Position numbers and translations under genes: made by a program. Below are positions 1 to 24,392 of a DNA stretch of 32,000 nt, piece by piece. Every line of letters begins with the position of its first letter. Within the stretch, counting starts at the first letter, position 1. Under the pieces are notes generated by a model, which ran no database searches, was not told the origin of the DNA, and saw nothing but the letters and a program-made list of their open reading frames with translations. Where the stretch lies: NCBI GenBank assembly GCA_052445935.1, contig JBQTCH010000003.1; one strand, 5' to 3'. Origin of the DNA: Rhodopseudomonas sp. NSM. GTDB lineage: Bacteria; Pseudomonadota; Alphaproteobacteria; Rhizobiales; Xanthobacteraceae.

Positions 1-294
1 AGCCGCATGGGCATCGGAACGGGTCCTTTCGCCGCAGAGTCGCTTCCTGCACGGGGACCAGATCGAAACTTCACGGCGGATGAGCATAGGGGAATCAACC
101 GTATCGGGTTGGAGACGGGTTGCCAGACGTGCGGTACCCGCGATCCAGGGACGCCACGTGGAAATTTTGTCATCGACCATCAGCCGCCGACTGCCCTAAA
201 TTCCATCGGTCTTGCTCAGCGCCTATACCCGCAGTGTCTATCGTGCAGCTTGAAGCAAGGCGGATATGTCTCCTATCTGAAAGGACGTCGCTAG
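1..294 (+). CDS. Polymorphic toxin, C-terminal part only (5' end lies outside the window); zinc-ribbon HNH endonuclease domain
   Basis: Frame +1 is open from nt 1. TGCQTCG...NFVIDHQPP...YPQCLSCSLKQG gives the CxxC / DHxxP / CxxC-x-K layout of classical HNH nucleases. Hand alignment to the C-terminus of 4945..5808 gives about two-thirds identity over ~79 aa. The TAG stop at 292-294 is followed 1 nt later by a small ORF that is paralogous to the one after 4945..5808. Confidence 0.6.
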   Translation, partial: SRMGIGTGPFAAESLPARGPDRNFTADEHRGINRIGLETGCQTCGTRDPGTPRGNFVIDHQPPTALNSIGLAQRLYPQCLSCSLKQGGYVSYLKGRR

Positions 295-295: not shown

Positions 296-664
296 ATGCC
301 CGTCTCATGCGACATAGCCCCGTTGAATTCGCTTGTCCTCATTCACGGCGCGCGTGGGTGGACGCCTCCGTTGCCTGTCGATGGTCAATTGATTTGGTCG
401 ACGCCGAGCTGCGTCGCAACTGCCTGCTTTCCGGAGGTCGAGGGGCCGACAAAGATCGTCATGGGAGCTGCGCCGGAGGTGAACCCTGGCACGGACCCGG
501 TTTTCACCGGGCTACTCGAAACGCCGGACCGGCTTGTCACCATCAGCACCGTTTCCGATGATAGCCCTATCCTGTCGTACGAGACACCCGATGTCGTCAC
601 AACAGTCAGAATTTGGCACAGTCATCCTCGGTGGCCGGAGATTGTCACGGTTGGGCTTGGCTGA
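296..664 (+). CDS. Putative cognate immunity protein (122 aa) for the HNH toxin at 1..294
   Basis: The ATG lies 1 nt after the toxin stop. It has the same length as 5815..6183 and colinear similarity to it (shared IW-S/A-TPSC, VR-I/V-W and C-terminal V-x-V-G/L-LG motifs). That paralog occupies the same position after the paralogous toxin. No family was recognised by eye. Confidence 0.6.
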   Translation: MPVSCDIAPLNSLVLIHGARGWTPPLPVDGQLIWSTPSCVATACFPEVEGPTKIVMGAAPEVNPGTDPVFTGLLETPDRLVTISTVSDDSPILSYETPDVVTTVRIWHSHPRWPEIVTVGLG

Positions 665-689: not shown

Positions 690-1334
690 ATGTCTTCGCT
701 GACCAAGATATTCTCGCAAGTGGATTTGGAAGGGAGCGTGGCTGCGCTGGCAAGTGAAATGAGGAAGAGAACGAGTTCCGACAGATTTCCCTGGGATGGC
801 TGGCCTTCACTAACCGAGTTGGAGCCGCTGTTTCTCGCCCCGGACGATCAGAGGTGGCCCTATTGGAAGGGCTACGATGAGTGGGCGTTGTATATCGAAG
901 GGTTGGACGGCACCGATGGCTTGCCCGATGTCGATCAGGGCAAGGTGTATCTGACGATGACTGGCACGCCCGATTTTGGCGTCATGCTCTCCTACGAAAA
1001 GTGGGACGGGCGAACAATGCAGTCGCAGGATTGTTTCTCCAAGGGCGACATGAGCCGCATCCGGGAATGGCTGCGGACGCTGCATGACGATCTGCGCCCA
1101 ATCGGTCTGTTCATTCCCTACGCGCAAGCCTGGCCCGCCGTGAAGGAGTTCATGGAGCGCGACGGCGAGCTGCCGACCAGCATCGAGTGGGTCGACGCCG
1201 AAGCTTTGCCGCCGAATACGTTTCGCTTTCCGGGATTCTTTCGGCCGGGCCCGGAGCCGCGGGTGCTGCGCGAGGAAGACATCAACGACGAATCGCCGGA
1301 CGGCAGTGATCCGTTCAAATCCTTGCGCGGCTGA
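690..1334 (+). CDS. Hypothetical protein (214 aa), possibly an additional or orphan immunity protein
   Basis: A long ORF on the cassette strand with an acidic, Trp-rich, non-repetitive translation that does not look like a GC-shadow ORF. It lies between an immunity gene and the portal 3' fragment. There is no clear Shine-Dalgarno sequence and no recognised family. Confidence 0.5.
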   Translation: MSSLTKIFSQVDLEGSVAALASEMRKRTSSDRFPWDGWPSLTELEPLFLAPDDQRWPYWKGYDEWALYIEGLDGTDGLPDVDQGKVYLTMTGTPDFGVMLSYEKWDGRTMQSQDCFSKGDMSRIREWLRTLHDDLRPIGLFIPYAQAWPAVKEFMERDGELPTSIEWVDAEALPPNTFRFPGFFRPGPEPRVLREEDINDESPDGSDPFKSLRG

Positions 1335-1335
1335 G

Positions 1336-1485
1336 CGGCGGGCGAACGGTTCTCCCATCGCCCCGCTGGCGAGCGACCGCGTCGCGTTGTGGGAACGCGT
1401 CAGCGCCGCGCGGTTCCTGACGCTCAACGAAAAACGCGAAGCCGTCGGCTACGCGCCGCTGGAGGGCGGCGACCGGCTGGGGTGA
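1336..1485 (+). pseudogene. 3'-terminal fragment of a GTA/HK97-type portal gene (RcGTA g3 equivalent)
   Basis: Frame +1 reads ...IAPLASDRVALWERVSAARFLTLNEKREAVGYAPLEGGDRLG* with the stop at 1483-1485. This matches my memory of the conserved C-terminal end of alphaproteobacterial GTA portal proteins. No start codon or portal body precedes it; the upstream 1.3 kb is toxin/immunity DNA. Confidence 0.5.
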
Positions 1486-2141: not shown

Positions 2142-2798
2142 ATGCTTGCCCCGTTGTCCGATGCCGGGCTCGCGCCGGCGCGTCTGATGCTGGCTGCCGA
2201 CGGCAGCATCGAAGGCTATGCCAGCCTGTTCGGCGAGATCGACCAGGCGCGCGACATGGTGATGCCGGGCGCGTTCACGCAGACGCTGAAGCACCGCGGT
2301 GTGCGAAAAATCCCGATGCTGTTCCAGCACGACCCGAGCGAGCCGGTCGGAATCTGGCTCGACCTCGTCGAGGATTTTCGCGGCCTCCGCGCGCGCGGCC
2401 GGCTGATCCCCGACGTCGCGCGCGGACGTGAACTCCTTGCATTGCTGCGCGAGGGCGCGATCGACGGGCTGTCGATCGGCTATCGCACCGTGCGCGGCCA
2501 GATCGACCCGAAGACGCGGGTGCGGCGGCTGTATCAGGTCGACCTCTGGGAAATCTCGATCGTCACCTTTCCGCTGCTGAACGGCGCGCGCGTCGGCACC
2601 GTCAAGCAGACGCCGCGCCTGTCGCTGCAACGCCGCGTCGCGGAAGCGGCATGGCGCAGCATGCAGAGCGCGCCATCGCAATCGGCCAGCGCCGCGGATG
2701 CACCGGCGTTGCCCGCGCGGCGCGGGCGGACGGCCCTGACGCTGTCCTCCCGCGCCGATCGCAAGCGCGCCTTCGCAGGGATCAGCCGGAGCCGGTGA
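2142..2798 (+). CDS. HK97-family prohead (capsid maturation) protease, RcGTA g4 equivalent
   Basis: GYASLFGEIDQARDMVMPGAF, MLFQHD, GLSIGY and LWEISIVTFP are motifs typical of HK97/GTA prohead proteases. The internal ATG at 2142 is preferred because 1977-2141 of the tracked ORF overlaps the REP-like palindromes. The 3' end is uncertain because the last ~65 codons are Ala/Arg/Ser-rich low complexity. Confidence 0.85.
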   Translation: MLAPLSDAGLAPARLMLAADGSIEGYASLFGEIDQARDMVMPGAFTQTLKHRGVRKIPMLFQHDPSEPVGIWLDLVEDFRGLRARGRLIPDVARGRELLALLREGAIDGLSIGYRTVRGQIDPKTRVRRLYQVDLWEISIVTFPLLNGARVGTVKQTPRLSLQRRVAEAAWRSMQSAPSQSASAADAPALPARRGRTALTLSSRADRKRAFAGISRSR

Positions 2799-2896: not shown

Positions 2897-3631
2897 ATGT
2901 GGCGCGCGACCGAGAGCACCGCGGCGCATCAGCGCGCGCGCTTCATGCAGCCGAATGCGACGCTCTGGATGCGCCCGGACGCCGAGCGTTGGATCAGGCC
3001 CGACGTCGCGCGTTTTCTCGCGCCGGGTGCCCTGCCGGAAGATGTCTTCCCTGCACTGGATCGCAAGTACAACCCAAACCAACCGCGGGTGCCGAAGGGC
3101 AATCCGGACGGCGGCGAGTGGACGCTTGGCGGGCTTGGAGCGCGCTGGTCCATCGATCTGACGGGTGTCCCGTCCGATCTTTCAGGCCGACCCCCGGCTC
3201 GAGTTCGCCTCGCCCAAATAGGCAAGCTGATCACTGATATCTTTGGATTGCCGTATTACGAACCAGGCGGTCATCACGAGGCCGCCAGGGCCATGTACAC
3301 CAAGTGGGACCTTCGACCGGAAACGCGAAAGGTCTTTGACAATTCGACGACGGGTAAGTTACCGAGCGGTAAGTGGGTGTAGTCGTTGGATGGTGGTCTC
3401 CTCCGTGAGCACTATTGGGATAAGCGTCACGCGGCGTACAATAAGGCTGTCGAAGAACTAAGCGAACGCTTTCTTGAAGAGAAGAAAATTACGCCTAAGA
3501 TGATGACGCCACACCAAGCGGAAGAATTGTGCGCGCGGATCAGACTGTCGGAAGTGCCCGAAATCAAAGACTACAACCGCGCGATCCGAATGTTGAGGCA
3601 GGTGTATCGACTTAGATACGGTCGAGAGTAG
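2897..3631 (+). pseudogene. Polymorphic toxin A: conserved N-terminal module plus a GHH-signature HNH/EndoVII-like nuclease domain, interrupted by an in-frame TAG at 3380-3382
   Basis: The ATGTGG start is conserved with 4945 and 6508. The N-terminus reads MWRATESTAAHQRARFMQPNATLWMRPDAERWIRPDVARFLAPG...NQPRVPKGNPDGGEWT. The C-terminal part carries LPYYEPGGHHE. The tracked ORFs 2651..3382 and 3386..3631 are in the same frame and are separated only by the TAG. Together they align colinearly with the single ORF 6508..7116 plus its extension. Confidence 0.7.
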
Positions 3632-3642
3632 CGGAGGTCAAT

Positions 3643-4044
3643 TTGACGAACTCCAGGATCCGTTTCAGTCGCGAAGAATTCGTGCCGCTTTGGACCGCGC
3701 TGCGCGAGCGTATCATCGCTTGTTTCGAAAGCACGGGTAAGATCATCGATCCTTTCGGTCGAAGGGACTTCTGGGTGGTCGACGAGGACCTCGGCGTCGC
3801 GCTGGTGGAAGTCGAGATCATGACACTCGACCTGCTCGATCCGCCGGTGATCTACGCCCTGCGCGACCTGCTGCAAGAGTATCCGGGCTTCGCCATCACC
3901 GTGTCGGTGGTGCCGCCTGGTGGCGCCAAGTGGCCCGGAATGGGCATCTCGCTGTTTCAAGGCGAGATCATCGACGGGTTGAAGCGCTCCTTTCTGCCGC
4001 CGCCCTATCGAAATCTGCACTACCTGGGATCTCGTCCAGAATAG
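3643..4044 (+). CDS. Putative immunity protein for the GHH-type toxin (133 aa)
   Basis: GGAGG at 3633-3637 lies 5 nt before the TTG start, which is 11 nt after the toxin reading frame ends. It is clearly paralogous to 7283..7663 (DFWVVD, VEIM-LDLL-P-VIY-LRDLL, G-IIDGLKR, LP-PY) and more distantly to 4261..4665. Confidence 0.7.
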   Translation: MTNSRIRFSREEFVPLWTALRERIIACFESTGKIIDPFGRRDFWVVDEDLGVALVEVEIMTLDLLDPPVIYALRDLLQEYPGFAITVSVVPPGGAKWPGMGISLFQGEIIDGLKRSFLPPPYRNLHYLGSRPE

Positions 4045-4079
4045 CCGTGTCCGTGCGGCGTCGCGGGACCTGACTGCGT

Positions 4080-4217
4080 TCTTCGACGGTGACCAGCGAA
4101 GATAACCAGCAGCTCGAGTGGCCGGTCCTGAATGCTCGGATCGACCGTATCCGAGATTTCAACCGCGCGATGCGGATGTTAAGGGTCATCGCGAAAATGT
4201 GGCTCGGGCGGGAATGA
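4080..4217 (+). pseudogene. Orphan stub: last ~30-45 codons of a third GHH-type toxin
   Basis: Frame +3 reads ...LNARIDRIRDFNRAMRMLRVIAKMWLGRE* with the stop at 4215-4217. This aligns with the C-terminal ends ...EIKDYNRAIRMLRQVYRLRYGRE* (toxin A) and ...EIRDYNRAIRMLRRVFRWRMGRE* (toxin C). No N-terminal part or start codon is present. Confidence 0.55.
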
Positions 4218-4260
4218 GAGGAGCGGCGACGCGGCTGGCCACAAACGGGAATGGCGGCTG

Positions 4261-4665
4261 TTGCACCATGCCATCGTGCAGGTGATCGACAGTTATGTCT
4301 GCGAGCGCGCGAAAGCTGGTCGCGCGGTCTGGGTGTCTTCGAAACGTAGTCCGGGCTGTTATTCTCAGTTCATCACCTTGTACGACATCCAGTTGTTGCA
4401 GCCGGAGATGCTGGCTGCGTTGCAGACGTTGCTCGCCGGGTATCGCGACTGGTCGATTGAAATCCAGGTTGCTGCCCCGGACGGGGAGCGCACATGGGAT
4501 TGGCGCGACATGACGATCGATATTTCGCACGATCGTATCATCGACCGGCTTCAGCATGATCTGTTGCCACCGCATCTGCGGCAGGTGCGGTTCGGGACGA
4601 CGATCGATGAGTACAACGAGGAGCTCGCCGCGACGGTGCGGCGGCTGATGCGCAAGCCCGTCTAA
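4261..4665 (+). CDS. Orphan immunity-family protein (divergent paralog of 3643..4044 and 7283..7663)
   Basis: It shares ...LYDIQLLQPEMLAALQTLLAGY...IIDRLQHDLLPPHL with the VEIM-LDLLQP...IIDGLKR...LP-PY pattern of the other two. The start is uncertain: only a TTG/CTG is available after the upstream in-frame stop at 4180-4182. Confidence 0.55.
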   Translation: MHHAIVQVIDSYVCERAKAGRAVWVSSKRSPGCYSQFITLYDIQLLQPEMLAALQTLLAGYRDWSIEIQVAAPDGERTWDWRDMTIDISHDRIIDRLQHDLLPPHLRQVRFGTTIDEYNEELAATVRRLMRKPV

Positions 4666-4722
4666 GAAGCGCCTCCCGGCGCCCACCCGCCATAGTACAG
4701 ACAGATCGATACGAAGACACGG

Positions 4723-4880
4723 GTGCGACGGCTGTATCAGGTCGATCTCTGGGCGATCTCGATCGTCACGCTTCCGCTGCTCGCCGGCGCGCGCGTGCCA
4801 CCGTCAAACACACGCCGCTGCAATCGCCGCAGTTCGCGTCATCGCGATCGGCCAGCGCCGCGGATGGACCGGCGCGAGAT
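4723..4880 (+). pseudogene. Duplicated, degenerate 3' end of the prohead protease gene
   Basis: RRLYQVDLWAISIVTLPLLAGARV matches RRLYQVDLWEISIVTFPLLNGARV of the protease (nt ~2521-2592) at 21 of 24 residues. Nucleotide similarity continues with deletions through atcggccagcgccgcggatg. No protease body lies upstream. Confidence 0.7.
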
Positions 4881-4944
4881 CGTAAGGCAGCCACGCGTTC
4901 CATCGGGTCTTTCGCTCCACTCACCAATCAATCGAGGTCGACAC

Positions 4945-5808
4945 ATGTGGCGCTCCAGCGACAGCACCGCCGCGCATCAGCGCGCGCGCTTCATGCAACC
5001 AGATGCGGCACGCTGGATGCGGCCGGATGCCGAGCGATGGATCCGGCCCGATGTCGCGCGCTTTCTCGCGCCCGGCACCGACCCCGCGACGATCTTCCCG
5101 GCGCTCGACCGCAAGTACAGCCCGAACCAGCCGCGGGTACCGGCCGGAAACCCGGATGGCGGGCAGTGGACGAATGGCGAACTGGGAGGAGGGGCTTCGT
5201 CTGCCCGCCCGGGGCGCAATGATCCGCGCGTGATTTCCGACGCTGACCTCGAGCCCGTCAAGCCTGGGCAGCAACACGCTCAAGCGCGCGGGCGGCGCGG
5301 TGGCGGGACGGTCATCATCAACGGCCAGCGGTTCGAATTGACGCCGGGGCAAGGAGCACGGCTGACAGCGGTGCAAGCTCGCGCTGACGCTGCGATCGCT
5401 CGGGTGCGGGAAGCCGAACCCTCGTGGAAGCCGCCCCCCAATGACTACCAGACGCCGGAGGGGATGATCCGGGCCTATGAGGCCGACGCTGCGGTCGCCC
5501 AGGCGAGAATCAATCAATTGGCAGCGGGAGGAGCCCTGCCGGGCCCGTACGCCGGCGAATCAATTTCGGCAAGAGGGCCGAATCGGGATTTTCGAGCTTC
5601 GGAACGACGCGAGATCAATCGAATTGGCGCCGACACCGGCTGCCACACTTGTGGAAAGTTGGAACCCGGGACCAGCCTTGGTAACTTCGTCGCAGACCAC
5701 CAACTCCCGACCAATATCAATCCGATCAGCCGTGCACAGCGTCTCTATCCGCAATGTCTTTCGTGTAGTCGGAAGCAAGGACCGTTTGTCCGCGACCTGA
5801 AGAAGTAG
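4945..5808 (+). CDS. Polymorphic toxin B (287 aa), the only uninterrupted full-length copy: conserved N-terminal module plus linker plus zinc-ribbon HNH endonuclease domain
   Basis: GAGG lies 7 nt upstream of the conserved ATGTGG start. The N-terminal 78 aa differ at only 3 positions from toxin C. The C-terminus TGCHTCG...NFVADHQLP...YPQCLSCSRKQG has the HNH layout and is paralogous to 1..294. An immunity-type ORF follows. Confidence 0.75.
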   Translation: MWRSSDSTAAHQRARFMQPDAARWMRPDAERWIRPDVARFLAPGTDPATIFPALDRKYSPNQPRVPAGNPDGGQWTNGELGGGASSARPGRNDPRVISDADLEPVKPGQQHAQARGRRGGGTVIINGQRFELTPGQGARLTAVQARADAAIARVREAEPSWKPPPNDYQTPEGMIRAYEADAAVAQARINQLAAGGALPGPYAGESISARGPNRDFRASERREINRIGADTGCHTCGKLEPGTSLGNFVADHQLPTNINPISRAQRLYPQCLSCSRKQGPFVRDLKK

Positions 5809-5814
5809 TCCGCC

Positions 5815-6183
5815 ATGAATCAGACCACGAGATGCGCGCCGCCGAATTCGATCGTCTTCCTGGAAGACCCGGCGGGCGGCAAGTCGCCGAAGATCGACGA
5901 TCGCCCGGTGAGCATATGGGCGACACCATCGTGTATCATCGTCGGCACGCTCTGTTCGATGGATGGTGAGACCGAACTGATCGTGTCGGACCAACCGAAT
6001 GATGTGCCGCCGACACGGCCGACGTTCGACAGTTTTCTCCAAACGCCGAGCCGCGTCATCGAGGTGTCGACCTCCGAGCGCGAAATACTCCTGCGCTGTC
6101 CGGTGGAAACACACTTCACCCATGTTCGCGTCTGGACCAACCATCTCAGCGAACCGGACCGGGTTTTGGTCGTGCTCGGGTGA
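5815..6183 (+). CDS. Putative cognate immunity protein (122 aa) for toxin B
   Basis: The ATG lies 6 nt after the toxin stop. It is a paralog of 296..664 with the same length and shared motifs. Confidence 0.65.
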   Translation: MNQTTRCAPPNSIVFLEDPAGGKSPKIDDRPVSIWATPSCIIVGTLCSMDGETELIVSDQPNDVPPTRPTFDSFLQTPSRVIEVSTSEREILLRCPVETHFTHVRVWTNHLSEPDRVLVVLG

Positions 6184-6336
6184 TGGGAGTCGCCGCGGCC
6201 GGTGAGGGGGCGCGGCGAGGGTGCTCGCCCTGACCGCCCCCGCACACGAACGGGGTGGTGCTCTCCGCTTCTGCAACATCGACTAGAGCACTTCATCGAC
6301 TGATAGGATCAACGCGGCATTCTCGAGTGCGGAGTC

Positions 6337-6454
6337 GTCATCCTGAGGCGCGCGCGTAGCGCGCCTTGAAGGATGCGGCGAAGACGCTTGTGGCTCATCC
6401 TTCGAGGCCCGCAGCGCCGCGCATCGCGCGGCCCAGCGTGAACCTCAGGATGAC
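6337..6454. repeat. MITE/REP-like palindromic element, family 1 (gtcatcctgagg ... cctcaggatgac)
   Basis: The 12-bp terminal inverted repeats enclose nested palindromes (gaaggatg ... catccttc). Four copies are present in the window, at 6337, 13059, 14916 and 17132. Confidence 0.8.
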
Positions 6455-6507
6455 GACAGTGATTCCATCAAACCAGAGTTGATCCAACAACGTTCGAGGC
6501 CCGACCG

Positions 6508-7248
6508 ATGTGGAGCTCATCCGCGAGCACCGCCGCGCATCAGCGCGCGCGCTTCATGCAGCCCGATGCGGCGCGGTGGATGCGGCCAGACGCGGATCGC
6601 TGGATCCGGCCCGATGTCGCGCGCTTCCTTGCGCCGGGCACTGATCCGGCGACGATCTTCCCCGCGCTCGACCGCAAGTACAGCCCTAACCAGCCGCGGG
6701 TACCGGCCGGAAACCCGGATGGCGGGCAGTGGACAAATGGTGGCATCAGCGCTCGCTGGGCCGTCGACGATGTCCTCCTCAGCGATCCACAGGATGATCA
6801 GCTCCTCGATGGCGTTCAACTGACTCAGGTCGGGAGCTCAGTCACTGACGCCGATGGACTTCCCTACTATGCAACCGGCGGCCATCACGAAATGCCGAGG
6901 GGTGTCTACAGGAAATGGAACTTGCAGCCCGAGACCGAACGGGTATTCAATCGATCGACGACTGGCTCGCTTCCACAGGGAAGCCATATCGAAACGGATC
7001 AAGGTTTGCTCCGAGGACACTACTGGGATGGACCGGATGGTGCTCATGCCAAGTACAACAACGCCGTGTCTGACTTGAGTGAGCGCTTCATGAGAGAACA
7101 ACGGATCACGCCTTGAGTGATGACGCCCGATCAAGCCGAAGAGCTTCTGACGCGTATCAGGGAGTCGGACGTGCCGGAAATACGTGACTACAACCGGGCA
7201 ATTCGGATGCTGAGGAGGGTGTTCCGATGGCGCATGGGCAGAGAGTAG
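6508..7248 (+). pseudogene. Polymorphic toxin C: conserved N-terminal module plus GHH-signature nuclease domain, interrupted by an in-frame TGA at 7114-7116
   Basis: It uses the conserved ATGTGG start and carries LPYYATGGHHE. After ...RITP the in-frame TGA is followed, in the same frame, by VMTPDQAEELLTRIRESDVPEIRDYNRAIRMLRRVFRWRMGRE* (stop at 7246-7248). This matches the uninterrupted equivalent stretch of toxin A. Confidence 0.7.
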
Positions 7249-7282
7249 GCCGTTGGCTCGGTGATCGCCGGAGCATCGTCCG

Positions 7283-7663
7283 ATGACGCGGGAGAAATTC
7301 CTGCAGACCTGGAGCGAGTTGCGAGATCGCGCCATTGCCTATCTCGAAGGCTTTGGAAAGGAGATCGATCCGCTCGGCCACAAGGACTTCTGGGTCGTCG
7401 ACGATGATTATGACCTCTATCTTCTCCAGGTCGAGATCATGAGTCTCGATCTGCTGCAGCCGGCGGTGATCTACGGACTGCGCGATCTGCTCCGTGACTA
7501 TCCCGATTTCGCGATGACCGTTGCCGTTGTGGCGCCCCACGGCATCACGTGGCCGCGGATGGGTATCACGCTGTTCGAAGGCCAGATCATCGACGGGCTG
7601 AAGCGCGGATCGCTGCCGCTCCCCTATCAGGAGATTCAATATAAGGGCTCTCGGCCGGATTGA
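7283..7663 (+). CDS. Putative immunity protein for the GHH-type toxin (126 aa)
   Basis: GGAG lies 9 nt upstream of the ATG. It is a paralog of 3643..4044. Confidence 0.7.
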   Translation: MTREKFLQTWSELRDRAIAYLEGFGKEIDPLGHKDFWVVDDDYDLYLLQVEIMSLDLLQPAVIYGLRDLLRDYPDFAMTVAVVAPHGITWPRMGITLFEGQIIDGLKRGSLPLPYQEIQYKGSRPD

Positions 7664-7761
7664 TGAAGCGCTGCTTCCAGGAGGCCGACCCGCATCCCTG
7701 AACGCATTGCTGGCCGCCCGCTAGCCGCCGACCAACCGATCCCCTCGACTGAACGCTCCCC

Positions 7762-7790
7762 CGCCGTGGCCTCCCGCCGCGGCGTTTTCG
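7762..7790 (+). terminator. Intrinsic-terminator-like hairpin immediately upstream of the capsid gene
   Basis: A 9-bp stem cgccgtggc / gccgcggcg (one G-U pair) has the loop ctccc and is followed by TTTTCG at 7785-7790. It lies 37 nt before the capsid ATG. Confidence 0.4.
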
Positions 7791-7827
7791 TTCGTGCCTA
7801 TCCCGAAACGCCCACCAGGAGAACCCG

Positions 7828-9084
7828 ATGGACTACGACATCACCACCACCGCGCCGGAGACCAAGGCCGGCTTCGCTTCGTCCGAGCGCGATGCGCAGG
7901 ACGAGCTGCTGCGCGTCCACGAGGAATTCAAGGCGGCCAATGACGAGCGCCTGGCCGCGCGCGAGCGGCGGCGCGGCGACGTGTTGCTGGAAGAGAAGGT
8001 CGACCGGATTTCGGATGCGATCGACACCCGGCTGAAGCGGATCGAGGATTTCGCGCTGAAGCAGGCGCGGCCGCGGCTCGACGGCCGCCGCGCCGAGAGC
8101 TTCGCCGGCAGCCGCGAGCACAAGAGTGCGTTCGAGGCCTACGTCCGCAGCGGCGACGCCGCGCCGCTGCGCGCGATCGAGACCAAGGCGCTGTCGGTCG
8201 GCTCCAATCCGGACGGCGGTTACCTCGTGCCGGTCGAGCTCGAACACGCGATCGCCTCGCGGCTTTCGTCGATCTCGCCGATCCGGAGCCTCGCCTCGGT
8301 GCGCGAGATTTCCGGCAGCGTCTACAAGAAGCCGTTCATGACCACGGGGCCCGCCACCGGCTGGGTCGGCGAGACCGACGTGCGGACGCAGACGGCCTCG
8401 CCGGTGCTCGACGCGCTGTCGTTCCCGGCGATGGAGCTGTACGCGATGCCGGCCGCGACCGCGACGCTGCTCGACGACTCGGCGGTGAATATCGACGAGT
8501 GGATCGCCGCCGAGGTCGAACTCACCTTCGCGGTGCAGGAGGGCGCGGCGTTCGTCAACGGCGACGGCGTCAACAAGCCGAAGGGCTTTCTCGCCGCGCC
8601 CACGGTGGCGAACGCGTCGTGGAGCTGGGGCAGTCTCGGTACTATCGCCACCGGCGCCGCCGGCGCGTTTCCCGAGGACGATCCGTCCGACGTGCTGGTC
8701 GATCTGATCTACGCGCTGAAGGCCGGCTATCGCCAGAACGGCGCCTTCGTGATGAACCGCAAGACCCAGGCCACGATCCGCAAGTTCAAGGATGCGTCCG
8801 GCAGCTATCTGTGGCAGCCGCCGGCGCAGGCGGGCGGCCGCGCCTCGCTGATGACGTTCCCGCTGATCGAGGCCGAGGACATGCCCGACGTCGCGGCGAA
8901 TTCGCTCAGCGTCGCGTTCGGCGACTTCCGCCGCGGCTATCTGGTGGTCGACCGGCTCGGCGTCCGCGTGCTGCGCGACCCGTATTCCGCCAAGCCCTAC
9001 GTGCTGTTCTACACCACGAAGCGGGTCGGCGGCGGCGTGCAGGACTTCGACGCGATCAAGCTGCTGAAGTTCGCGGCGAGCTGA
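7828..9084 (+). CDS. HK97-family major capsid protein, RcGTA g5 equivalent (418 aa)
   Basis: AGGAG lies upstream of the ATG. The N-terminal coiled region (delta-domain-like) is followed by GGYLVP, AFVNGDG-NKPKGFL and YRQNGAFVMN, motifs typical of HK97 capsids. Its position after the protease is also as expected. Confidence 0.93.
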   Translation: MDYDITTTAPETKAGFASSERDAQDELLRVHEEFKAANDERLAARERRRGDVLLEEKVDRISDAIDTRLKRIEDFALKQARPRLDGRRAESFAGSREHKSAFEAYVRSGDAAPLRAIETKALSVGSNPDGGYLVPVELEHAIASRLSSISPIRSLASVREISGSVYKKPFMTTGPATGWVGETDVRTQTASPVLDALSFPAMELYAMPAATATLLDDSAVNIDEWIAAEVELTFAVQEGAAFVNGDGVNKPKGFLAAPTVANASWSWGSLGTIATGAAGAFPEDDPSDVLVDLIYALKAGYRQNGAFVMNRKTQATIRKFKDASGSYLWQPPAQAGGRASLMTFPLIEAEDMPDVAANSLSVAFGDFRRGYLVVDRLGVRVLRDPYSAKPYVLFYTTKRVGGGVQDFDAIKLLKFAAS

Positions 9085-9123
9085 ACGAGCATCCGAACGC
9101 ACGATCCAGACTCACGATCCAAG

Positions 9124-9150
9124 CGGCGCGCCCGATCGGCGCGCCGTTTT
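9124..9150 (+). terminator. Rho-independent terminator after the capsid gene
   Basis: A perfect 9-bp GC stem cggcgcgcc / ggcgcgccg (9124-9132 paired with 9138-9146) has the loop cgatc and is followed by TTTT at 9147-9150. Confidence 0.6.
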
Positions 9151-9194
9151 CGATTCCAGCCCCTGTTTTGGATCCTCGGTGAGGACAACGTCGC

Positions 9195-10022
9195 ATGCCG
9201 CACCAGGACGATGCCTGGCTGCGCCATCAGCAGACGCGATGGTTGCGGCCCGACGGCGACCGCTGGGTGCGCCCGGACGCCGCGCGGTTTCTGAAGCCAG
9301 GTAGCAACCTGGTCGAGGTCTTCCCGGCGCTGGCGTTCAAATACAGCCCAAACCAGCCGCGCGTGCCGGCCGGCCATCCGGACGGCGGGCAGTGGACGAG
9401 CGGGGGAGGGGGTGAGGTCTCGGACTTTGCGGACCCCATCGGCAGTACGCAGCCGAGCTATGCGCTGCCCATGGGCGACGTTGCGATCGGTGACGTTGCC
9501 GTTGGAAGCGACGATCTGTTTTCCATCGTGTCGAAACAGCCCGAGCGCACTGGTGTCAGGCTTGCGGGCGATCTACCGGAAGGCAGCGATCCGGCTCCGG
9601 AGGTGCCGACGGAGCCTCCGCCGGAAATTCCAGCCAAGAAACCCAGAACCAGTGCAGAGCGGACGGCCATTCTTCGAGCTGTCGAAAATTGGGCAGTGCG
9701 ACATGCTGGTCTACCAGCTAAGATGTTGTTCGGTGCGATCGAGAATATTGAATGGCTCAAGGATCGGACAGATCTCATCCGAGCAGCAACCGATCCGCCG
9801 AAGAGCCTCCTGGAGTTGCAGAATGAAGTCGGCAGGAAGCGCGCGGGCTACGACGTTCATCACATTGTTGAAAGAACCTGGGCGGAGTATTTTGGCTTTT
9901 CGCGATCGCAGGTCAATGATCGGTCGAATTTGGTGAGTATTCCGCGACTTAAGCATTGGCAGATCACCGGATGGTACATGACGCGGACCGATGAGTTCGG
10001 TGGTTTGTCGCCGCGGGATTAA
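9195..10022 (+). CDS. Polymorphic toxin D (275 aa): N-terminal module (subtype 2) plus an HNH nuclease domain of the xHH type; probably truncated by a TAA
   Basis: GAGGA lies 9 nt upstream of the ATG. The N-terminus reads MPHQDDAWLRHQQTRWLRPDGDRWVRPDAARFLKPG...NQPRVPAGHPDGGQWT. The C-terminal part carries GYDVHHIVE...NDRSNLVSIPRLKHW. In the same frame after the TAA at 10020-10022, 25 more codons (..VGLYALRRFGVLEP*) match the C-terminus of toxin E and end in a GTGA overlap with the next gene. Confidence 0.7.
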   Translation: MPHQDDAWLRHQQTRWLRPDGDRWVRPDAARFLKPGSNLVEVFPALAFKYSPNQPRVPAGHPDGGQWTSGGGGEVSDFADPIGSTQPSYALPMGDVAIGDVAVGSDDLFSIVSKQPERTGVRLAGDLPEGSDPAPEVPTEPPPEIPAKKPRTSAERTAILRAVENWAVRHAGLPAKMLFGAIENIEWLKDRTDLIRAATDPPKSLLELQNEVGRKRAGYDVHHIVERTWAEYFGFSRSQVNDRSNLVSIPRLKHWQITGWYMTRTDEFGGLSPRD

Positions 10023-10096
10023 CTTGCAGGTCGGGACTGGAACGAGCGTAAGCGGGTGGGGCTATACGCTCTTCGGCGATTTGGAGTGCTCGAGCC

Positions 10097-10468
10097 GTGA
10101 AAGCGATCGATCTTGAAGCCATGTCGACGGACGAACTGGTGCAGCGCTTCTCCGCTATAGGAGTCGCACAAGATCAGGCGCTGCTCGGATTCAGGCTCAA
10201 GGAGTTCAATCGGCTTTTCGAGAAAATGGCCGATGTGTCCGAGGCGCTGAAACGACGTGACGGCGATCAGCGGCGCGCGCTGCTGGTGCTGTTCAGCTAT
10301 CCGAATATGCAAGTGCGATTGAAGGCTGCCAAACATACGCTCGCAGTCGCGCCGCTCGAAGCGCGCCAGCAGCTCGAAGCAATTGTGGCTAGCAGGTGGT
10401 TCCCGCAAGCGGGTGACGCCGGCATGTGCTTGTCGTTGCTGGACGACGGGACTTTCAAACCGAAATGA
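10097..10468 (+). CDS. Putative immunity protein, DUF2019-like (123 aa)
   Basis: The GTG start overlaps the ancestral toxin stop (GTGA at 10097-10100). ELVQRF...ALL...FNRLF...LK.R.GDQRRALL.L..YPN.QVRLKAA.HTLAVAP.EAR..LE.I...W.PQAGDAGM.L..LD.G.FKP matches my memory of DUF2019 proteins. It is a close paralog of 11563..11934. Confidence 0.7.
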   Translation: MKAIDLEAMSTDELVQRFSAIGVAQDQALLGFRLKEFNRLFEKMADVSEALKRRDGDQRRALLVLFSYPNMQVRLKAAKHTLAVAPLEARQQLEAIVASRWFPQAGDAGMCLSLLDDGTFKPK

Positions 10469-10517
10469 CACAGAGAGACGATGTCGAGGCCCACGCGGCG
10501 CCCGCCCGCGGACCGAC

Positions 10518-10595
10518 GCGATGATCATGCTGCTGAAATTTTCGGCGAGCTGATCGGCCCGGTCCGCCCGGAACGGCCTGATCTCGACATCCAAA
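10518..10595 (+). pseudogene. Degenerate duplicate of the capsid gene 3' end
   Basis: gacgcgatgatcatgctgctgaaattttcggcgagctga aligns with the capsid terminus gacgcgatcaagctgctgaagttcgcggcgagctga (DAIKLLKFAAS*). The similarity runs on into the copied terminator. Confidence 0.55.
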
Positions 10596-10627
10596 CGGCG
10601 CGCCCGATCGGCGCGCCGTGTTCGTTT
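10596..10627 (+). terminator. Second copy of the capsid terminator hairpin, with a decayed T-tract
   Basis: It has the same cggcgcgcc-cgatc-ggcgcgccg hairpin as 9124-9146, here followed by tgttcgttt. Confidence 0.4.
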
Positions 10628-10664
10628 GCGGCCTTCGGTTCATCCGCAACGAGGATGCTGCCGT

Positions 10665-11566
10665 ATGCCGCATCACGACCAGGCCTGGCTGCGCCATCAG
10701 TAGATGCGATGGCTGCGGCCCGATGGCGACCGCTGGGTGCGCCCGGACGCCGCGCGCTTTCTGAAGCCAAGTAGCAACCCGTCGAGGCCTTTCCGGCGCC
10801 GGCGTTCAAATTCAGCCCGAACCAGCCGCGCGTGCCGGCCGGCCATTCGGACGGCGGGCAGTGGACGAGTGGCGGGGGTGGGGCCGCCGAGTCTGCAGAT
10901 CCCAGTGGGAGCGGGCCCGCGAGCGCGGCGCAGCCGATGGGCGACGTTGCGATCGGCGACGCCGCGGCCCAAAGCAATGATCTGTTTTCAATCGTGTCGA
11001 AAGAGCCAGACCGCTCCGGCGTGCGGTTGGCGGGCGATCTGCCGGAGGGCAGCGATCCGGCGCCTGGAGTGCCCGGCAACGAGCCGCCGGAAATTCCGCA
11101 AAAGAAACCTGCCTATAGTGCAGATCGAACGAGATATTTTCGGGCTGCTGCCGACTGGCTTGCACGAAGCTCGGGTCTTCCCGGACTGCTTTACGAAGGC
11201 TCTATGAGATCCGTGGAGTGGCTGCGAGATTGGCATGATGTTATTTCGGCTGCGCGAGACGGTCCCAAGCCGTTGAGGGAGTTCATGGACGGTGTTGGTC
11301 AAGCTCGCCCGGGCTACGATGTCCATCACATCAACGAGGTAAAGGCGGCAAAGCTGGATGGTTATAGCCTGTTGGTGATCAACGATCCTTCGAATCTTGT
11401 CAGCATTCCGCGCCTGAAGAACTATCAGATCACGGTATGGTATTCAGCACCAAGCGTCGAATTTGATGGTTTGTCTCCGGGAGAATTCCTGCGTGGCAAG
11501 AGCTGGGAGACGCGCCGCGAAGTCGGGTTGAGGGCGCTGCGAAAATTTGGAGTGTTGGAGCCATGA
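10665..11566 (+). pseudogene. Polymorphic toxin E: same architecture as toxin D, inactivated by an in-frame TAG (10701-10703) and a 1-nt deletion near 10779
   Basis: The sequence atg ccg cat cac gac cag gcc tgg ctg cgc cat cag TAG corresponds to cag CAG in toxin D. aacctggtcgagg in D is aacccgtcgagg here, which shifts the frame from +3 to +2. The downstream ORF 10832..11566 carries PGYDVHHINE...NDPSNLVSIPRLKNY and an intact C-terminus ...FGVLEP*. Confidence 0.7.
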
Positions 11567-11934
11567 GCAAACAGGATCTTCGCCAAATGGCGACGCCGGA
11601 GCTCGTGGCTCTATTTGCGAAAGTCGTGGTCGGACAGGACGAGGCCTTGCTCGGACATCAGCGAGCGAAATTCAAACGCTTGTTCGACATGATGCGAGAT
11701 ATTGCGAACGAATTGAAGGGACGCGAAAGTGATCAGCGGGTCGCGCTGTTGAGCCTCTTCGAATACCCGAATATGCAGGTGCGGCTTCAGGCGGCCAAGC
11801 TGACGCTCGCGGTCGCTCCCCTGGAGGCGCGCAAACAGCTCGAAGCTATCGCGTCCACAAAGTGGTATCCGCAGGCCGGCGACGCCGGTATGTGCCTATC
11901 CTTTCTGGACGATGGAACATTCAAGCCGAAATGA
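11563..11934 (+). CDS. Putative immunity protein, DUF2019-like (123 aa)
   Basis: There is an ATGA start/stop overlap with toxin E. It is a close paralog of 10097..10468. Confidence 0.7.
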   Translation: MSKQDLRQMATPELVALFAKVVVGQDEALLGHQRAKFKRLFDMMRDIANELKGRESDQRVALLSLFEYPNMQVRLQAAKLTLAVAPLEARKQLEAIASTKWYPQAGDAGMCLSFLDDGTFKPK

Positions 11935-14029: not shown

Positions 14030-14599
14030 ATGTCGGCGATTTTGCTGGCGGGGCCGGCTGTGGAGCCGTGGACGCTCGCCGAACTGAAGACCTTTCTGCG
14101 CGTCGACCACGACGACGACGATCCGGTGATCGCGTCGCTGCTCGCCGCGGCGCGTAGCCAGATCGAGGCGATGACGCGGCGCGCGCTGCTGGCGCAGAGC
14201 TGGCGGATCACGCGCGACGCCTGGCCGCGCGACGGCCGCATTGCGCTGCGGATCGGGCCGCTGCAGGCGCTGAGCGCGGCGCGTGTGTTCGATGCCGACG
14301 GCACTGCGCATGAGGTCGACCTCGCGCGGTTCGTGATCGACGCCGCAAGCGGGACGATCGCCGCGCCGTTTGGGTCGCTGCCGCAGCCGGGGCGCAGCGT
14401 CGCAGGCATCGCGCTCGACGTCGAGCTCGGTTACGGCACGCAAGCCTCGGACGTGCCCGAGCTGCTGCGCCACGCGGTGCGCACGTTGGTCGCGCACTGG
14501 TACGACAACCGCGGCATGGCGGCGATCGGCGGCAGCGTCGCGATACTGCCGGGCAGCGTGGCGGCGATGATCGCGAGCTTCCGGGTGGCGGCGCTATGA
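14030..14599 (+). CDS. Phage gp6-like head-tail connector protein, RcGTA g6 equivalent (189 aa)
   Basis: GGAGGGAAG lies upstream of the ATG at 14030. LAELKTFLRVDHDDDDPVIASLLAAARSQIEAMTRRAL is the typical N-terminal signature of this family. Its position relative to the following genes also fits. Confidence 0.8.
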   Translation: MSAILLAGPAVEPWTLAELKTFLRVDHDDDDPVIASLLAAARSQIEAMTRRALLAQSWRITRDAWPRDGRIALRIGPLQALSAARVFDADGTAHEVDLARFVIDAASGTIAAPFGSLPQPGRSVAGIALDVELGYGTQASDVPELLRHAVRTLVAHWYDNRGMAAIGGSVAILPGSVAAMIASFRVAAL

Positions 14600-14913
14600 T
14601 CGATCCGGGCAGGCTGAGCACGCGGCTGACGCTGGAGGCGCCGGTCGAGAGCGGTGACGGGCAGGGCGGCGTGGTGCGCAGCTACGCGGCGCAGGCCGTG
14701 GTGTGGGCGCTGGTCGTGCCGCACGCGGCGCGCGAGGGCGTCGATGCCGATGCCGATCGGGCGATGTTGCGCGTGACCATCACGCTGCGCGGCGGCGTTC
14801 AGCTCACCCGGGCGCATCGGCTGATCGATGGCGCGCGGATCTATCGCATCGTGTCGTGGCGCCCGCGCGAAGGCGGCGCGCTGATCGAGATCGACGCGGA
14901 GACGCGGCTCTGA
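14596..14913 (+). CDS. Head-tail adaptor / head-closure protein, RcGTA g7 equivalent (105 aa)
   Basis: There is an ATGA overlap with the connector gene. The size, the pattern (LTLEAP...DGQGG....Y......WA.V.P...RE) and the position are typical of this family. Confidence 0.8.
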   Translation: MIDPGRLSTRLTLEAPVESGDGQGGVVRSYAAQAVVWALVVPHAAREGVDADADRAMLRVTITLRGGVQLTRAHRLIDGARIYRIVSWRPREGGALIEIDAETRL

Positions 14914-14915
14914 GC

Positions 14916-15014
14916 GTCATCCTGAGGAGCCCGGCTTAGCCGGGCGTCTCGAGGATGGCGGCAGGCACCCGTGGGCATCCTTCGAGGCTCGCTGCGCTCG
15001 CACCTCAGGATGAC
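14916..15014. repeat. MITE/REP-like palindromic element, family 1
   Basis: It has the gtcatcctgagg ... cctcaggatgac termini. It starts 3 nt after the adaptor stop and ends 28 nt before the next start. Confidence 0.8.
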
Positions 15015-15041
15015 GGCTTCGCTGCAACAAGGATGTTCCCC

Positions 15042-15452
15042 ATGCCCACCGCACCTGCGGCGCTGCGCGCTGCGATTCATCAGGCGCTGACTTCCGACAG
15101 CGGACTTCTCGCCGCGCTCGGCGGGGCGCGCATCTACGACGAGCCGCCGCGCGACGCGGCGCTGCCCTACGTCACGCTCGGCGAGGCGCGGATCAGCGAC
15201 GCCTCCGCCGACGACGCGCCGATGCAGGAGCATCAGCTGACGCTGCACGCCTGGTCGCGGCAGGGCGGGCACAAGGAGGCGCATGTCATCACCGGCGCGC
15301 TGCTGCAGGCGCTCGACGACGCGCCGCTGCAGCCGGCCGGCCACCGCCTGGTCAATCTGCGCTTCGCGCTCGCCGATATCCGCCGCGAGGCCGACGGCCG
15401 CACCTATCACGCATTGGTGCGGTTCCGCGCCGTCACCGAACCTGTCAGTTAG
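15042..15452 (+). CDS. DUF3168-family protein, RcGTA g8 (tail terminator) equivalent (136 aa)
   Basis: AAGGA lies 8 nt upstream of the ATG at 15042; the longer tracked ORF begins inside the repeat element. IYDEPPRDAALPYVTLGE...H.W motifs and the position are typical of the family. Confidence 0.8.
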   Translation: MPTAPAALRAAIHQALTSDSGLLAALGGARIYDEPPRDAALPYVTLGEARISDASADDAPMQEHQLTLHAWSRQGGHKEAHVITGALLQALDDAPLQPAGHRLVNLRFALADIRREADGRTYHALVRFRAVTEPVS

Positions 15453-15462
15453 GAGAAGACGC

Positions 15463-15870
15463 ATGGGCGCACAGAAGGGCAAGGATCTGCTGGTCAAGAT
15501 CAGCGACGGCGGCAACTACGTCACCGTCGCGGGGTTGCGCAGCCGCAGGATCGCGTTCAACGCCGAGTTGGTGGACATCACTCACGCCGAATCCGCCGAG
15601 CGCTGGCGCGAGCTGCTGGCCGGCGCCGGCGTGCGCCGCGCCTCGATCTCCGGCCGCGGCCTGTTCAAGGATGCCGCCTCCGACGCTTTGGTGCGAAGTG
15701 CGTTCTTCAACGGGCTGATCAGCGACTGCCAGCTGATCGTGCCGGATTTCGGCGCGATCTCCGGGCCGTTCCAGATCGCGGCGCTCGAATTCGCCGGCGA
15801 GCACAATGGCGAGGTGACGTTCGACGTCACGCTGGAGAGCGCCGGCGCGCTGAGCTTCGCAACCTTGTGA
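15463..15870 (+). CDS. Major tail protein (TP901-1-like), RcGTA g9 equivalent (135 aa)
   Basis: AGGAGAAG lies upstream of the ATG at 15463. GKDLLVKI...YVTVAGLRS..I.FN.E.VD.T and the C-terminal VTFD.TLES.G pattern are typical of the family. Confidence 0.85.
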   Translation: MGAQKGKDLLVKISDGGNYVTVAGLRSRRIAFNAELVDITHAESAERWRELLAGAGVRRASISGRGLFKDAASDALVRSAFFNGLISDCQLIVPDFGAISGPFQIAALEFAGEHNGEVTFDVTLESAGALSFATL

Positions 15871-15877
15871 GGGGATC

Positions 15878-16192
15878 ATGGCCAACAGACATCGCGGTGA
15901 GATCGAGGCGGAGATCGGCGGCCGGCGGCGCACGCTGGTGCTGACGCTGGGGGCGCTCGCCGAACTGGAGAGCGCGTTCGCGGCGTCCGATCTGGTGGCG
16001 CTGGCGCAGCGCTTCGGCAGCGGGCATCTGTCGGCGCGCGATCTGTTGCGGATCATCGCGGCGGGCCTGCGCGGCGCAGGAGAGGCAGTGAGCGACGACG
16101 AGGTCGCGGCGATGACGGTCGCGGGCGGCGCGACGGGCTATGCGATGATCGCGGCCGAACTGATCGCCGCGACCTTCGGCGAAGCGGCGTGA
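15878..16192 (+). CDS. GTA-family tail assembly chaperone-like protein, RcGTA g10 equivalent (104 aa)
   Basis: MANRHRGEIEAEIGGRRRTLVLTLGALAELESAF is the characteristic start of this family. The position after the major tail gene also fits. Confidence 0.8.
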   Translation: MANRHRGEIEAEIGGRRRTLVLTLGALAELESAFAASDLVALAQRFGSGHLSARDLLRIIAAGLRGAGEAVSDDEVAAMTVAGGATGYAMIAAELIAATFGEAA

Positions 16193-16392
16193 CGCCGTTT
16201 CCCTGGGCCGAGGCGATGCAATTCGGCTTCGGCGTGCTGCGGCTGTCGTCCGATCAGTTCTGGCGGATGACGCCGCGCGAACTCGCCAGCGCGCTGACCG
16301 GCGCGCGCGGCGCGATCGCGGCGCCGCTCGATCGCGGTGGTCTCGACGACCTGATGCGACGTTTTCCCGATCACGAGGAGCAAGCGCGATGA
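16189..16392 (+). CDS. rcc01693-family small tail protein, RcGTA g10.1 equivalent (67 aa)
   Basis: There is a GTGA overlap with the upstream gene. FPWAEAMQFGFGVLRLSSDQFWRMTPRELASAL is the family signature as I recall it. Confidence 0.8.
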   Translation: MTPFPWAEAMQFGFGVLRLSSDQFWRMTPRELASALTGARGAIAAPLDRGGLDDLMRRFPDHEEQAR

Positions 16393-16982: not shown

Positions 16983-17117
16983 CCCTCCCCCTTGCGGGGA
17001 GGGTCGCTCGCGCAGCGAGCGGGGTGGGGGGCCGCGGGCACTGCGCGCGTGGCCACCCCCACCCGGCCCGACGCCGCTGCGCGTCGCCGGTCCACCCTCC
17101 CCGCAAGGGGGAGGGTG
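16983..17117. repeat. MITE/REP-like element, family 2 (terminal ccctcccc-loop-ggggaggg hairpins)
   Basis: ccctcccccttgcggggaggg lies at the left end and accctccccgcaagggggagggt at the right end. The shared core gcgaagc..gggtg.gggg.ccgcgggcac is also found in 17898..18021. The element begins directly after the tape measure stop. Confidence 0.75.
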
Positions 17118-17131
17118 AAGAGAGCACGACC

Positions 17132-17231
17132 GTCATCCTGAGGAGCGCGCTCTTGCGCGCCTCGAAGGATGGCAACGCACACCGCGGCCCTGCTTCGAGG
17201 CTCGCCCTGCGGGCGAGCACCTCAGCATGAC
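17132..17231. repeat. MITE/REP-like palindromic element, family 1
   Basis: The termini are gtcatcctgagg ... cctcagcatgac, with one mismatch in the right terminus. It lies 14 nt from the family 2 element. Confidence 0.75.
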
Positions 17232-17255
17232 GGTTCCTTTGTTGCGAGCAAGATC

Positions 17256-17891: not shown

Positions 17892-17897
17892 GGACTG

Positions 17898-24377: not shown

Positions 24378-24392
24378 ACCAAAGGAAACGCT

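Follow-up and report, generated by a model that had tools for sequence, protein, structure and literature searches.

MuF polymorphic toxins, carried by temperate phages and prophage remnants, are the nearest described system to the locus we report here (Zhang et al., 2012, PMC3482391; Jamet et al., 2017, PMC5576092). Their genes lie inside the head-morphogenesis module, near portal, terminase and capsid genes, and each couples a constant N-terminal part with an exchangeable C-terminal toxin and is followed by an immunity gene; delivery by the capsid has been proposed. We found the same arrangement, for which we likewise propose capsid delivery, in 32,000 nucleotides of Rhodopseudomonas sp. NSM (GenBank assembly GCA_052445935.1, contig JBQTCH010000003.1; the whole of this stretch is referred to as the window). 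Here, cassettes of predicted toxin and immunity genes are embedded in the head module of an RcGTA-like gene transfer agent (GTA) cluster. An earlier note on this DNA had spoken of toxins carried by related GTAs, and the head-tail families place the genes in an RcGTA-like cluster: the GTA-specific families GTA_TIM, GTA-gp10 TAC, DUF2460 and Rcc01698_C are present in collinear head-tail order. Unlike MuF systems, the locus has no MuF / SPP1 gp7 domain (Phage_Mu_F), and its toxins have no match in Pfam, NCBIfam or PHROGs. The constant part is instead a domain of 78 aa that contains RWxRPD repeats and ends in a junction motif, the cassettes stand in arrays at three or four junctions of the GTA cluster, and their host is an RcGTA-like GTA rather than a prophage.

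A second point of comparison is provided by orphan arrays and immunity islands, such as the cdiA-CT/cdiI orphans of contact-dependent inhibition (CDI) systems, Rhs arrays, the orphan immunity genes of type VI secretion systems (T6SS) and the acquired interbacterial defence islands of Bacteroidales. As in these, immunity genes accumulate intact at our locus, displaced toxins are truncated or decayed, and upstream stumps mark successive insertions. The locus departs from them in that four toxins keep the full delivery domain and are inactivated by point mutation rather than by 5' truncation, and in that the proposed vehicle is a GTA particle. Toxin decay with persisting immunity is familiar from other polymorphic toxin systems. 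The more interesting result is the presence of polymorphic toxin/immunity arrays in GTA head modules, with a junction motif shared with phage polyvalent proteins, which appears to be undescribed; in the literature on GTAs with polymorphic toxins, immunity or kin discrimination, we found no paper describing toxin cassettes in GTA clusters. We read the window as probably containing a GTA-embedded polymorphic toxin/immunity array with four of the five complete toxins reduced to young pseudogenes and the immunity genes kept.

Toxin lesions and intact immunity genes

The toxin and immunity-type genes of the window all lie on the plus strand and are as follows.

1..294, plus strand: 3' end of a further B-type toxin gene, running off the window start (by alignment)
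296..664, plus strand: imm0 (B-type), intact (immB paralogue; full-length matches in other loci)
690..1334, plus strand: orf690, an orphan immunity-type open reading frame (ORF), intact (cognate family of the post-portal toxin family)
2897..3631, plus strand: toxin A pseudogene (A/C family, GGHHE motif), ATG at 2897, nonsense TAG at 3380-3382
3643..4044, plus strand: immA, intact (orphan copy in locus L004, full length, 95% identical)
4261..4665, plus strand: immA2, intact, cognate of the toxin stump at 4089-4217 (homologues in L004, L008 and L009)
4945..5808, plus strand: toxin B, intact (C-domain with CxxC...DH...CxxC; homologue alignment)
5815..6183, plus strand: immB, intact (B-type immunity family)
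6508..7248, plus strand: toxin C pseudogene (A/C family), nonsense TGA at 7114-7116
7283..7663, plus strand: immC, intact (immA paralogue, 70% at the nucleotide level; full-length homologues 64-71% identical)
9195..10100, plus strand: toxin D pseudogene (D/E family, VHH...N...H motifs), nonsense TAA at 10020-10022
10097..10468, plus strand: immD (DUF2019), intact (PF09450, E = 1.1e-43)
10665..11566, plus strand: toxin E pseudogene, ATG at 10665, with a TAG, a 1-nt deletion and a His-to-Asn change
11563..11934, plus strand: immE (DUF2019 by homology to immD), intact (immD paralogue, 72% at the nucleotide level)

We re-read the lesions that the earlier note had listed for toxins A, C, D and E, and all of them are present in the sequence. 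In toxin A, the TAG at 3380-3382 is followed by 81 further open codons, to 3631; homologues have glutamate (GAG or GAA) at this site, and the copy in locus L005 of R. telluris, which reads GAA, is 79-81% identical across the stop. Toxin C continues for 43 codons beyond its TGA, to 7248, and its homologues carry glutamate, lysine or arginine at that position (GAG, AAG or an Arg codon); the intact 246-aa homologue P0133 of R. pseudopalustris is 77% identical to toxin C across the stop. Intact members of the A/C family, from R. pseudopalustris and metagenomes, are 230-246 aa long, and both A and C have lost the most conserved C-terminal segment of the family, IRDYNRAIRMLR.

Toxins D and E belong to the D/E family. 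Members of this family, of which there are about 50, are mostly 285-310 aa long, and the TAA of toxin D falls exactly 25 codons short of the family's normal stop, where the nearest homologue has TAT (Tyr); the missing tail includes conserved D/E-family columns. In toxin E the TAG at 10701-10703 stands in place of a CAG found in toxin D and two orthologues, a 1-nt deletion lies at about 10780 (AACCC-GTCG against AACCTGGTCG), and AAC at 11420-11422 replaces a histidine that is conserved in at least 90% of 46 D/E-family members. As the earlier note had it, toxin B is the only toxin with an N-terminus that is uninterrupted. It belongs to a family of more than 897 homologues, most of them full length, and retains all 20 invariant columns. 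The fragment at 1..294 aligns over its last 97 aa with the C-terminus of toxin B and with toxins of L004, L006 and L007, and its visible part is free of lesions.

The disabling lesions, one indel and otherwise nonsense changes of one nucleotide, occupy different sites, and the stops are of three different kinds, in agreement with the proposal that they arose independently. Comparison of orthologous loci gave sense codons at each lesion position, and among the intact homologues compared none shared a stop at any of the four positions; lesions absent from homologues that have sense codons in their place mark these genes as pseudogenes. The lesions also look recent, as had been suggested: the downstream frames are open and non-synonymous differences are far below synonymous ones. 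In paralogue comparisons of the dN/dS type, the proportion of non-synonymous differences (pN) was much smaller than that of synonymous differences (pS) for the toxin domains, and after the toxin A stop pN was 0.23 against a pS of 0.78, so the toxins were constrained until recently.

Open and conserved frames 3' of the stops could also mean that a functional protein is still made, through programmed readthrough, recoding or deliberately split toxins, and the TGA of toxin C could be leaky. Against this, the paralogues are stopped by three different codons at positions that are not homologous, the homologues all have sense codons at these sites, and no recoding context is conserved; toxin E would need a frameshift in addition, and it has lost a near-invariant histidine. 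Because the stops are of three types, at non-homologous positions and never conserved, we reject recoding as barely credible, in line with the earlier note, which had ranked stop-codon readthrough as the less likely explanation.

The lesions are confined to one class of gene. Four of five toxins are interrupted compared with none of eight immunity genes (Fisher p = 0.007), and the toxin genes, which make up 4.1 kb of the 19.4 kb of toxin, immunity and structural coding sequence, contain all five disabling lesions (p about 4e-4). This bears on whether the stops and the 1-nt deletion could be errors in the contig. One lesion is indeed a single-base deletion in a run of C, and no second assembly of the same alleles was present in the collections searched. 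Four of the five disabling lesions are nevertheless stop-creating substitutions, and whereas the 4.1 kb of toxin genes holds every one of the lesions, the 15 kb of coding sequence around it has none. Errors made at random would not single out one class of gene, and we consider a sequencing or assembly artefact very unlikely.

All eight immunity-type ORFs are intact and full length relative to their homologues; the earlier note was right about their intactness but had counted seven. Omega was 0.16-0.58 for immunity gene pairs in the paralogue comparison. R. palustris HaA2 has cluster members at least 90% identical to immA, and homologues of immE are full length and 84-88% identical. For orf690 the only hint of a known family is a weak Imm1 match (E = 0.0023, below the Pfam cut-off).

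We then asked how common toxin interruption is elsewhere, using a scan of 104 evaluable N-domain toxin genes from 76 loci in which a gene was scored as interrupted if homologues align across or beyond its first stop. The scan recovered A, C and D in the window and found C-domain interruptions in 10 of 99 genes of other genomes, which differs from the four of five seen here (Fisher p = 0.001). With N-terminal lesions included, 15/97 genes elsewhere are interrupted (about 15%; binomial p about 0.0025). No other scanned locus has more than one interrupted toxin. Since four of five toxins are hit here compared with 10-15% elsewhere, and no other locus has more than one, the genome of the window is a real outlier for toxin interruption. 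We also considered redundancy as a cause of decay and rejected it: 1/16 toxins were affected in multi-toxin groups compared with 14/81 in single-toxin groups, so arrays are not more decayed.

A rival reading is that toxin activity was positively selected against and the nonsense mutations swept, for instance because new toxins may have killed clonemate recipients that lacked the new immunity gene, or leaked in the producer. The contrast between four of five interrupted here and about 10-15% elsewhere favours this, as do the mostly clean nonsense substitutions in otherwise well-preserved genes, the untouched structural and immunity genes, and the fact that A and D, which appear to be the newest cassettes, were hit as well. 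However, neutral pseudogenes also show a stop or an indel as their first visible lesion, and GC-rich genomes readily produce stops once constraint is lifted. Deviations from conserved columns (two in D, three in E) are within the family range, so that an excess of nonsense changes is not demonstrable, and toxin B remains intact. Adaptive inactivation differs from our preferred explanation, which leaves room for relaxed selection as well as for a cost of killing recipients, only in the force it assumes, and we regard it as unlikely, if the strongest of the alternatives. The data fit continuing selection on immunity with relaxed or negative selection on the toxins, and they fit drift and adaptive knock-out alike.

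Cassette architecture and occurrence in related genomes

Toxins A to E share the constant 78-aa N-domain, in which RWxRPD repeats are followed by the junction motif KYxPNQPRVPAG..GGQW, at 60-96% identity. The motif lies at 3062-3127, 5110-5175, 6673-6738, 9336-9401 and 10805-10870, and DNA homology between paralogues ends exactly there (repeat D1, 4939-5177, and alignment). Beyond it, the C-terminal parts belong to about 20 unrelated families among the 104 genes across loci. The small downstream gene co-varies with the C-terminal family: toxins of the D/E family are followed by a DUF2019 gene in 36 of 51 cases, those of the A/C family by an immA/C-type gene in 11/13, those of the B family by an immB-type gene in 11/13, and post-portal (family-3) toxins by an orf690-type gene at their 3' side in 5 of 7 loci. 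With its constant N-terminal part and variable C-domains, family-specific downstream genes and orphan cassettes, the locus has the architecture by which a polymorphic toxin system is defined (sensu Zhang et al., 2012), the toxin function of its products being predicted.

The following remnants lie among the cassettes.

4089..4217, plus strand: orphan toxin C-terminal stump of 42 codons with no N-domain (aligns to the A/C-family C-terminus)
4702..4874, plus strand: duplicated remnant of the protease 3' end and downstream spacer (repeats D7 and D10; tblastn)
10496..10633, plus strand: duplicated remnant of the capsid 3' end and post-capsid hairpin (repeats D9 and D8)

The stump at 4089-4217 matches the ends of intact L008 and L009 toxins at 83-87% identity, and together with the immunity gene at 4261-4665 it is a classical orphan module. 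Homologues of this gene, immA2, in L004, L008 and L009 are full length and 81-83% identical; intact toxins precede it in L008 and L009, and in L004, where it was scored as an orphan, only a fragA2-like stump precedes it. A protease 3' stump (4702-4796), which matches 2499-2593 at 87% as direct repeat D7, precedes toxin B, and a capsid 3' stump (10496-10556) precedes toxin E. These are the scars expected if incoming cassettes recombine via the conserved upstream gene and displace older ones. The newest cassettes would then be A and D, which are nearest the intact protease and capsid genes. GC content at third codon positions (GC3) is 0.66-0.75 in the cassettes (281-11934) compared with 0.83-0.92 in the GTA structural genes (7753-9084, 13937-25724), a difference that fits acquisition of the cassettes by horizontal transfer.

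A GC-rich hairpin, GGCGCGCC-CGAT-CGGCGCGCC, with a T-rich tail lies just 3' of the capsid gene (9117-9161). A second copy at 10589-10633 (terminator-like, 10595-10619), duplicated along with the 3' remnant of the capsid gene, lies upstream of toxin E; the hairpin may act as a leaky terminator that sets low expression of the cargo.

The layout is widespread. A scan of one genome per species gave at least 497 N-domain-encoding stretches, from which 75 loci were fetched for analysis, and a profile search with the N-domain gave 2,663 clusters at 50% identity (E <= 1e-3). We found the same cassette layout in 74 other loci of Nitrobacteraceae and Xanthobacteraceae, in genera that include Rhodopseudomonas, Nitrobacter, Afipia, Tardiphaga, Pseudolabrys, Pseudorhodoplanes and Variibacter; homologues of the cassette genes themselves come from Rhodopseudomonas and related Nitrobacteraceae. 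N-domain genes immediately follow the capsid (39), protease (34) or portal (8) gene of RcGTA-like clusters, and in some loci upstream of the portal.

Immunity genes often stand alone in these genomes, 54 of 146 immunity-type hits having no N-domain toxin upstream. The R. palustris metagenome-assembled genome (MAG) locus L004 has one toxin and seven immunity-type genes, among them the 95%-identical immA without a toxin and three tandem DUF2019 genes, with only C-terminal toxin stumps between these. In R. pseudopalustris and R. infernalis, orphan immunity genes sit beside stumps or stop-containing toxins, and C-terminal stumps with orphan immunity genes are present in L001, L004 and L028. Relatives of the window thus display later stages of the loss of toxins and retention of immunity. 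In one Rhodopseudomonas MAG (L030 7595-8818), a D-type toxin and its DUF2019 immunity gene form a single reading frame that extends 342 aa past the motif and represents either a lost stop or a natural toxin-immunity fusion.

The structural genes in which the cassettes are embedded are listed below.

1306..1485, plus strand: portal-gene 3' end, 3' of the cassettes at the window start (tblastn map)
2142..2798, plus strand: HK97-type prohead protease (GTA g4), intact (Peptidase_S78, E = 3.8e-39)
7828..9084, plus strand: HK97-type major capsid protein (GTA g5), intact (Phage_capsid, E = 2.4e-86)
14030..25724, plus strand: remaining RcGTA-like head-tail cluster, from the adaptor to DUF2793 (Phage_connect_1, Tail_completion_gp17, Phage_TAC_11 (GTA-gp10), DUF2460, hub, NlpC/P60, GTA_TIM 'megatron' and DUF2793)

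All comparable structural genes are full length and stop-free against R. pseudopalustris (L001), at 78-93% identity. The protease aligns over 218/218 aa (87% identity) and the capsid protein over 418/418 aa, the genes from the adaptor through DUF2460 are stop-free, and the checkable genes of 14030..25724 are intact. The position of the portal 3' end at 1306-1485, 3' of the first cassettes, implies a third insertion site for cassettes, after the portal gene; the toxin at this post-portal site extends beyond the window edge. A 390-aa portal gene does not fit between 690-1334 and 1306, and apart from this 3' end the portal, like the terminase, lies outside the window.

Between the post-capsid cassettes and the adaptor gene, the minus strand encodes a trypsin-like serine protease (13197-13979), kept at the same place in R. 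pseudopalustris L001 at 85% identity, and a small ORF (12651-13127) with a hydrophobic, signal-peptide-like stretch near its N-terminus. On the 3' side of the GTA cluster lies a low-GC (51-61%) island on the minus strand (25860-31854), unrelated to toxin decay, whose products are a radical SAM protein, several methyltransferases and a PMT_2-type glycosyltransferase.

Predicted products and proposed capsid loading

Conserved motifs offer a first indication of what the C-terminal domains do. The D/E family has HH...N...H, the B family CxxC...DH...CxxC and the A/C family GGHHE, and those of the D/E and B families suggest nuclease-like activity. Per-member Pfam scans gave weak AHH (HNH/EndoVII) matches in 3/46 D/E members (E about 0.08), which we treat as leads only. 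We examined AlphaFold models of two toxins, and the domain of toxin E (residues 50-209) was predicted with a predicted local distance difference test score (pLDDT) of about 95, the toxin B model having a mean pLDDT of 71; several HNH endonucleases were among the non-significant BFVD matches found with Foldseek.

The junction motif is not confined to GTA clusters. In the form K[YF]xPxQPR[VA]PxG..GGxW it recurs 4-11 times per protein between the domains of giant phage polyvalent effector proteins (P0187, P0188, P0191), which carry GNAT, NUDIX, ART, Acb1 and ADP-ribosyl-toxin domains. GTA toxins and polyvalent proteins have in common the last ~25 residues of the N-domain, and not its first ~50. 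One polyvalent protein (L079 8001-11675) is encoded between a portal/MuF gene and the genes for an S78-type prohead protease fusion and the capsid. For phage polyvalent proteins, packaging in the head followed by injection has been proposed (Iyer et al., 2017, PMC5512222). The GTA toxins likewise have the motif at a domain junction and are encoded in the head module, as expected of capsid-packaged effectors, and differ from polyvalent proteins in having one effector domain rather than 2-15 and in being accompanied by cognate protector genes. Because it is shared with proteins proposed to be packaged, the motif is a plausible loading or processing signal for HK97-type heads, and its presence suggests capsid loading of the GTA toxins.

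The internal proteins of phage T4 offer a parallel: their capsid-targeting sequence is cleaved by the prohead protease, and the cargo is injected along with the DNA. A short targeting part at the N-terminus followed by cargo, encoded among head genes, is what we propose for the GTA toxins from their sequence; the two groups have no sequence relationship.

In some members of the toxin B family (P0025, P0029, P0047, P0117), a coiled-coil-like insertion of 40-100 aa separates the RWxRPD repeats from the junction motif, and one B-family member weakly matches Phage_scaffold (E = 0.049). A link to procapsid assembly is possible, and we note it as a lead only.

The shared motif also raises the prospect that the products are not interbacterial toxins at all. 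They could be accessory effectors of the GTA or phage, with anti-defence or DNA-processing roles, injected with the DNA, the small genes being chaperones or inhibitors; the losses seen here would then reflect a change in GTA biology rather than toxin warfare. The anti-defence domains of motif-bearing polyvalent proteins (Acb1, NUDIX, ART) and the lack of a match to any toxin family are in keeping with this. By contrast, hypervariable C-domains with strictly co-varying small genes, orphans and stumps are hallmarks of polymorphic toxin/immunity systems, and anti-defence effectors usually need no cognate protector. We consider accessory effectors improbable and retain the toxin/immunity reading.

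Several observations weigh against that reading, or against parts of it. Searches of Pfam, NCBIfam and PHROGs with all toxins and immunity genes found only DUF2019 in immD and the sub-threshold Imm1 match in orf690, sequence-profile searches of the Protein Data Bank (PDB) with the three family alignments gave nothing significant, and Foldseek searches of PDB and BFVD with the E and B models gave no match with E < 0.1. The products are thus called toxins and immunity proteins from gene architecture and co-variation, and their packaging into particles is suggested by gene position and the shared motif. Toxin D lacks only 25 residues, and some activity might remain. No near-identical strain with the same alleles was found, toxin B and the toxin fragments being singletons in clusters at 90% identity. 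Finally, the longer survival of immunity than of toxins does not by itself explain four interruptions in five, because the proportion elsewhere is about 15% and arrays fare no worse.

Toxin loss and a possible role in kin policing

We envisage that the N-domain and junction motif would load a toxin into the GTA head, where the S78 prohead protease might cleave at the motif. The GTA toxins would be single-effector counterparts of the polyvalent proteins, released at the junction motif and injected together with DNA into recipient cells, of which those with the cognate immunity gene, the kin, would survive. Immunity would benefit any cell that meets its neighbours' particles, and the toxin only the rare producer that lyses; from this it would follow that immunity persists under selection and toxins are lost. 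Loss of toxins could come about through relaxed selection or through the cost of killing would-be recipients.

The earlier note had concluded that toxin activity is dispensable or selected against while immunity is kept. The orphans and stumps of relatives support its second part, immunity outliving toxins; for its first part the data fit either alternative. Its description of the locus as an immunity island needs correcting: besides immunity genes the locus holds the intact toxin B and part of another B-type toxin, cut off by the window start, so the island is not a pure one. The present strain would represent an early stage of the process, being largely an immune non-killer whose remaining intact toxin sits at the post-protease site.

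We put forward, tentatively, a wider possibility. GTAs of Nitrobacteraceae and Xanthobacteraceae might double as particles for toxin delivery and kin policing, nuclease-type toxins being loaded into the head by way of a dedicated N-domain and a junction motif resembling a protease site, and injected with the DNA so as to kill or disable recipients that are not immune. With similar reserve, the resulting arms race could be seen as recorded in the immunity arrays of the GTA cluster, with the present strain as an 'immune non-killer'. The SitA lipoprotein toxins of Myxococcus, reportedly delivered by outer-membrane exchange, would be a counterpart in logic: polymorphic toxins on a channel for sharing resources, from which only immune kin benefit. 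Their delivery route and protein families are unrelated to those proposed here.

If true, this would give GTAs a selectable function beyond gene transfer. How GTAs are maintained is an open question, and the particles would be weapons or kin-recognition devices, with transfer limited to immune kin. The locus and its 74 relatives make the idea directly testable, the interrupted toxins serving as natural knock-outs. The junction motif, in turn, ties GTA cargo to phage polyvalent effectors and may be a general loading or processing signal for HK97-type heads.

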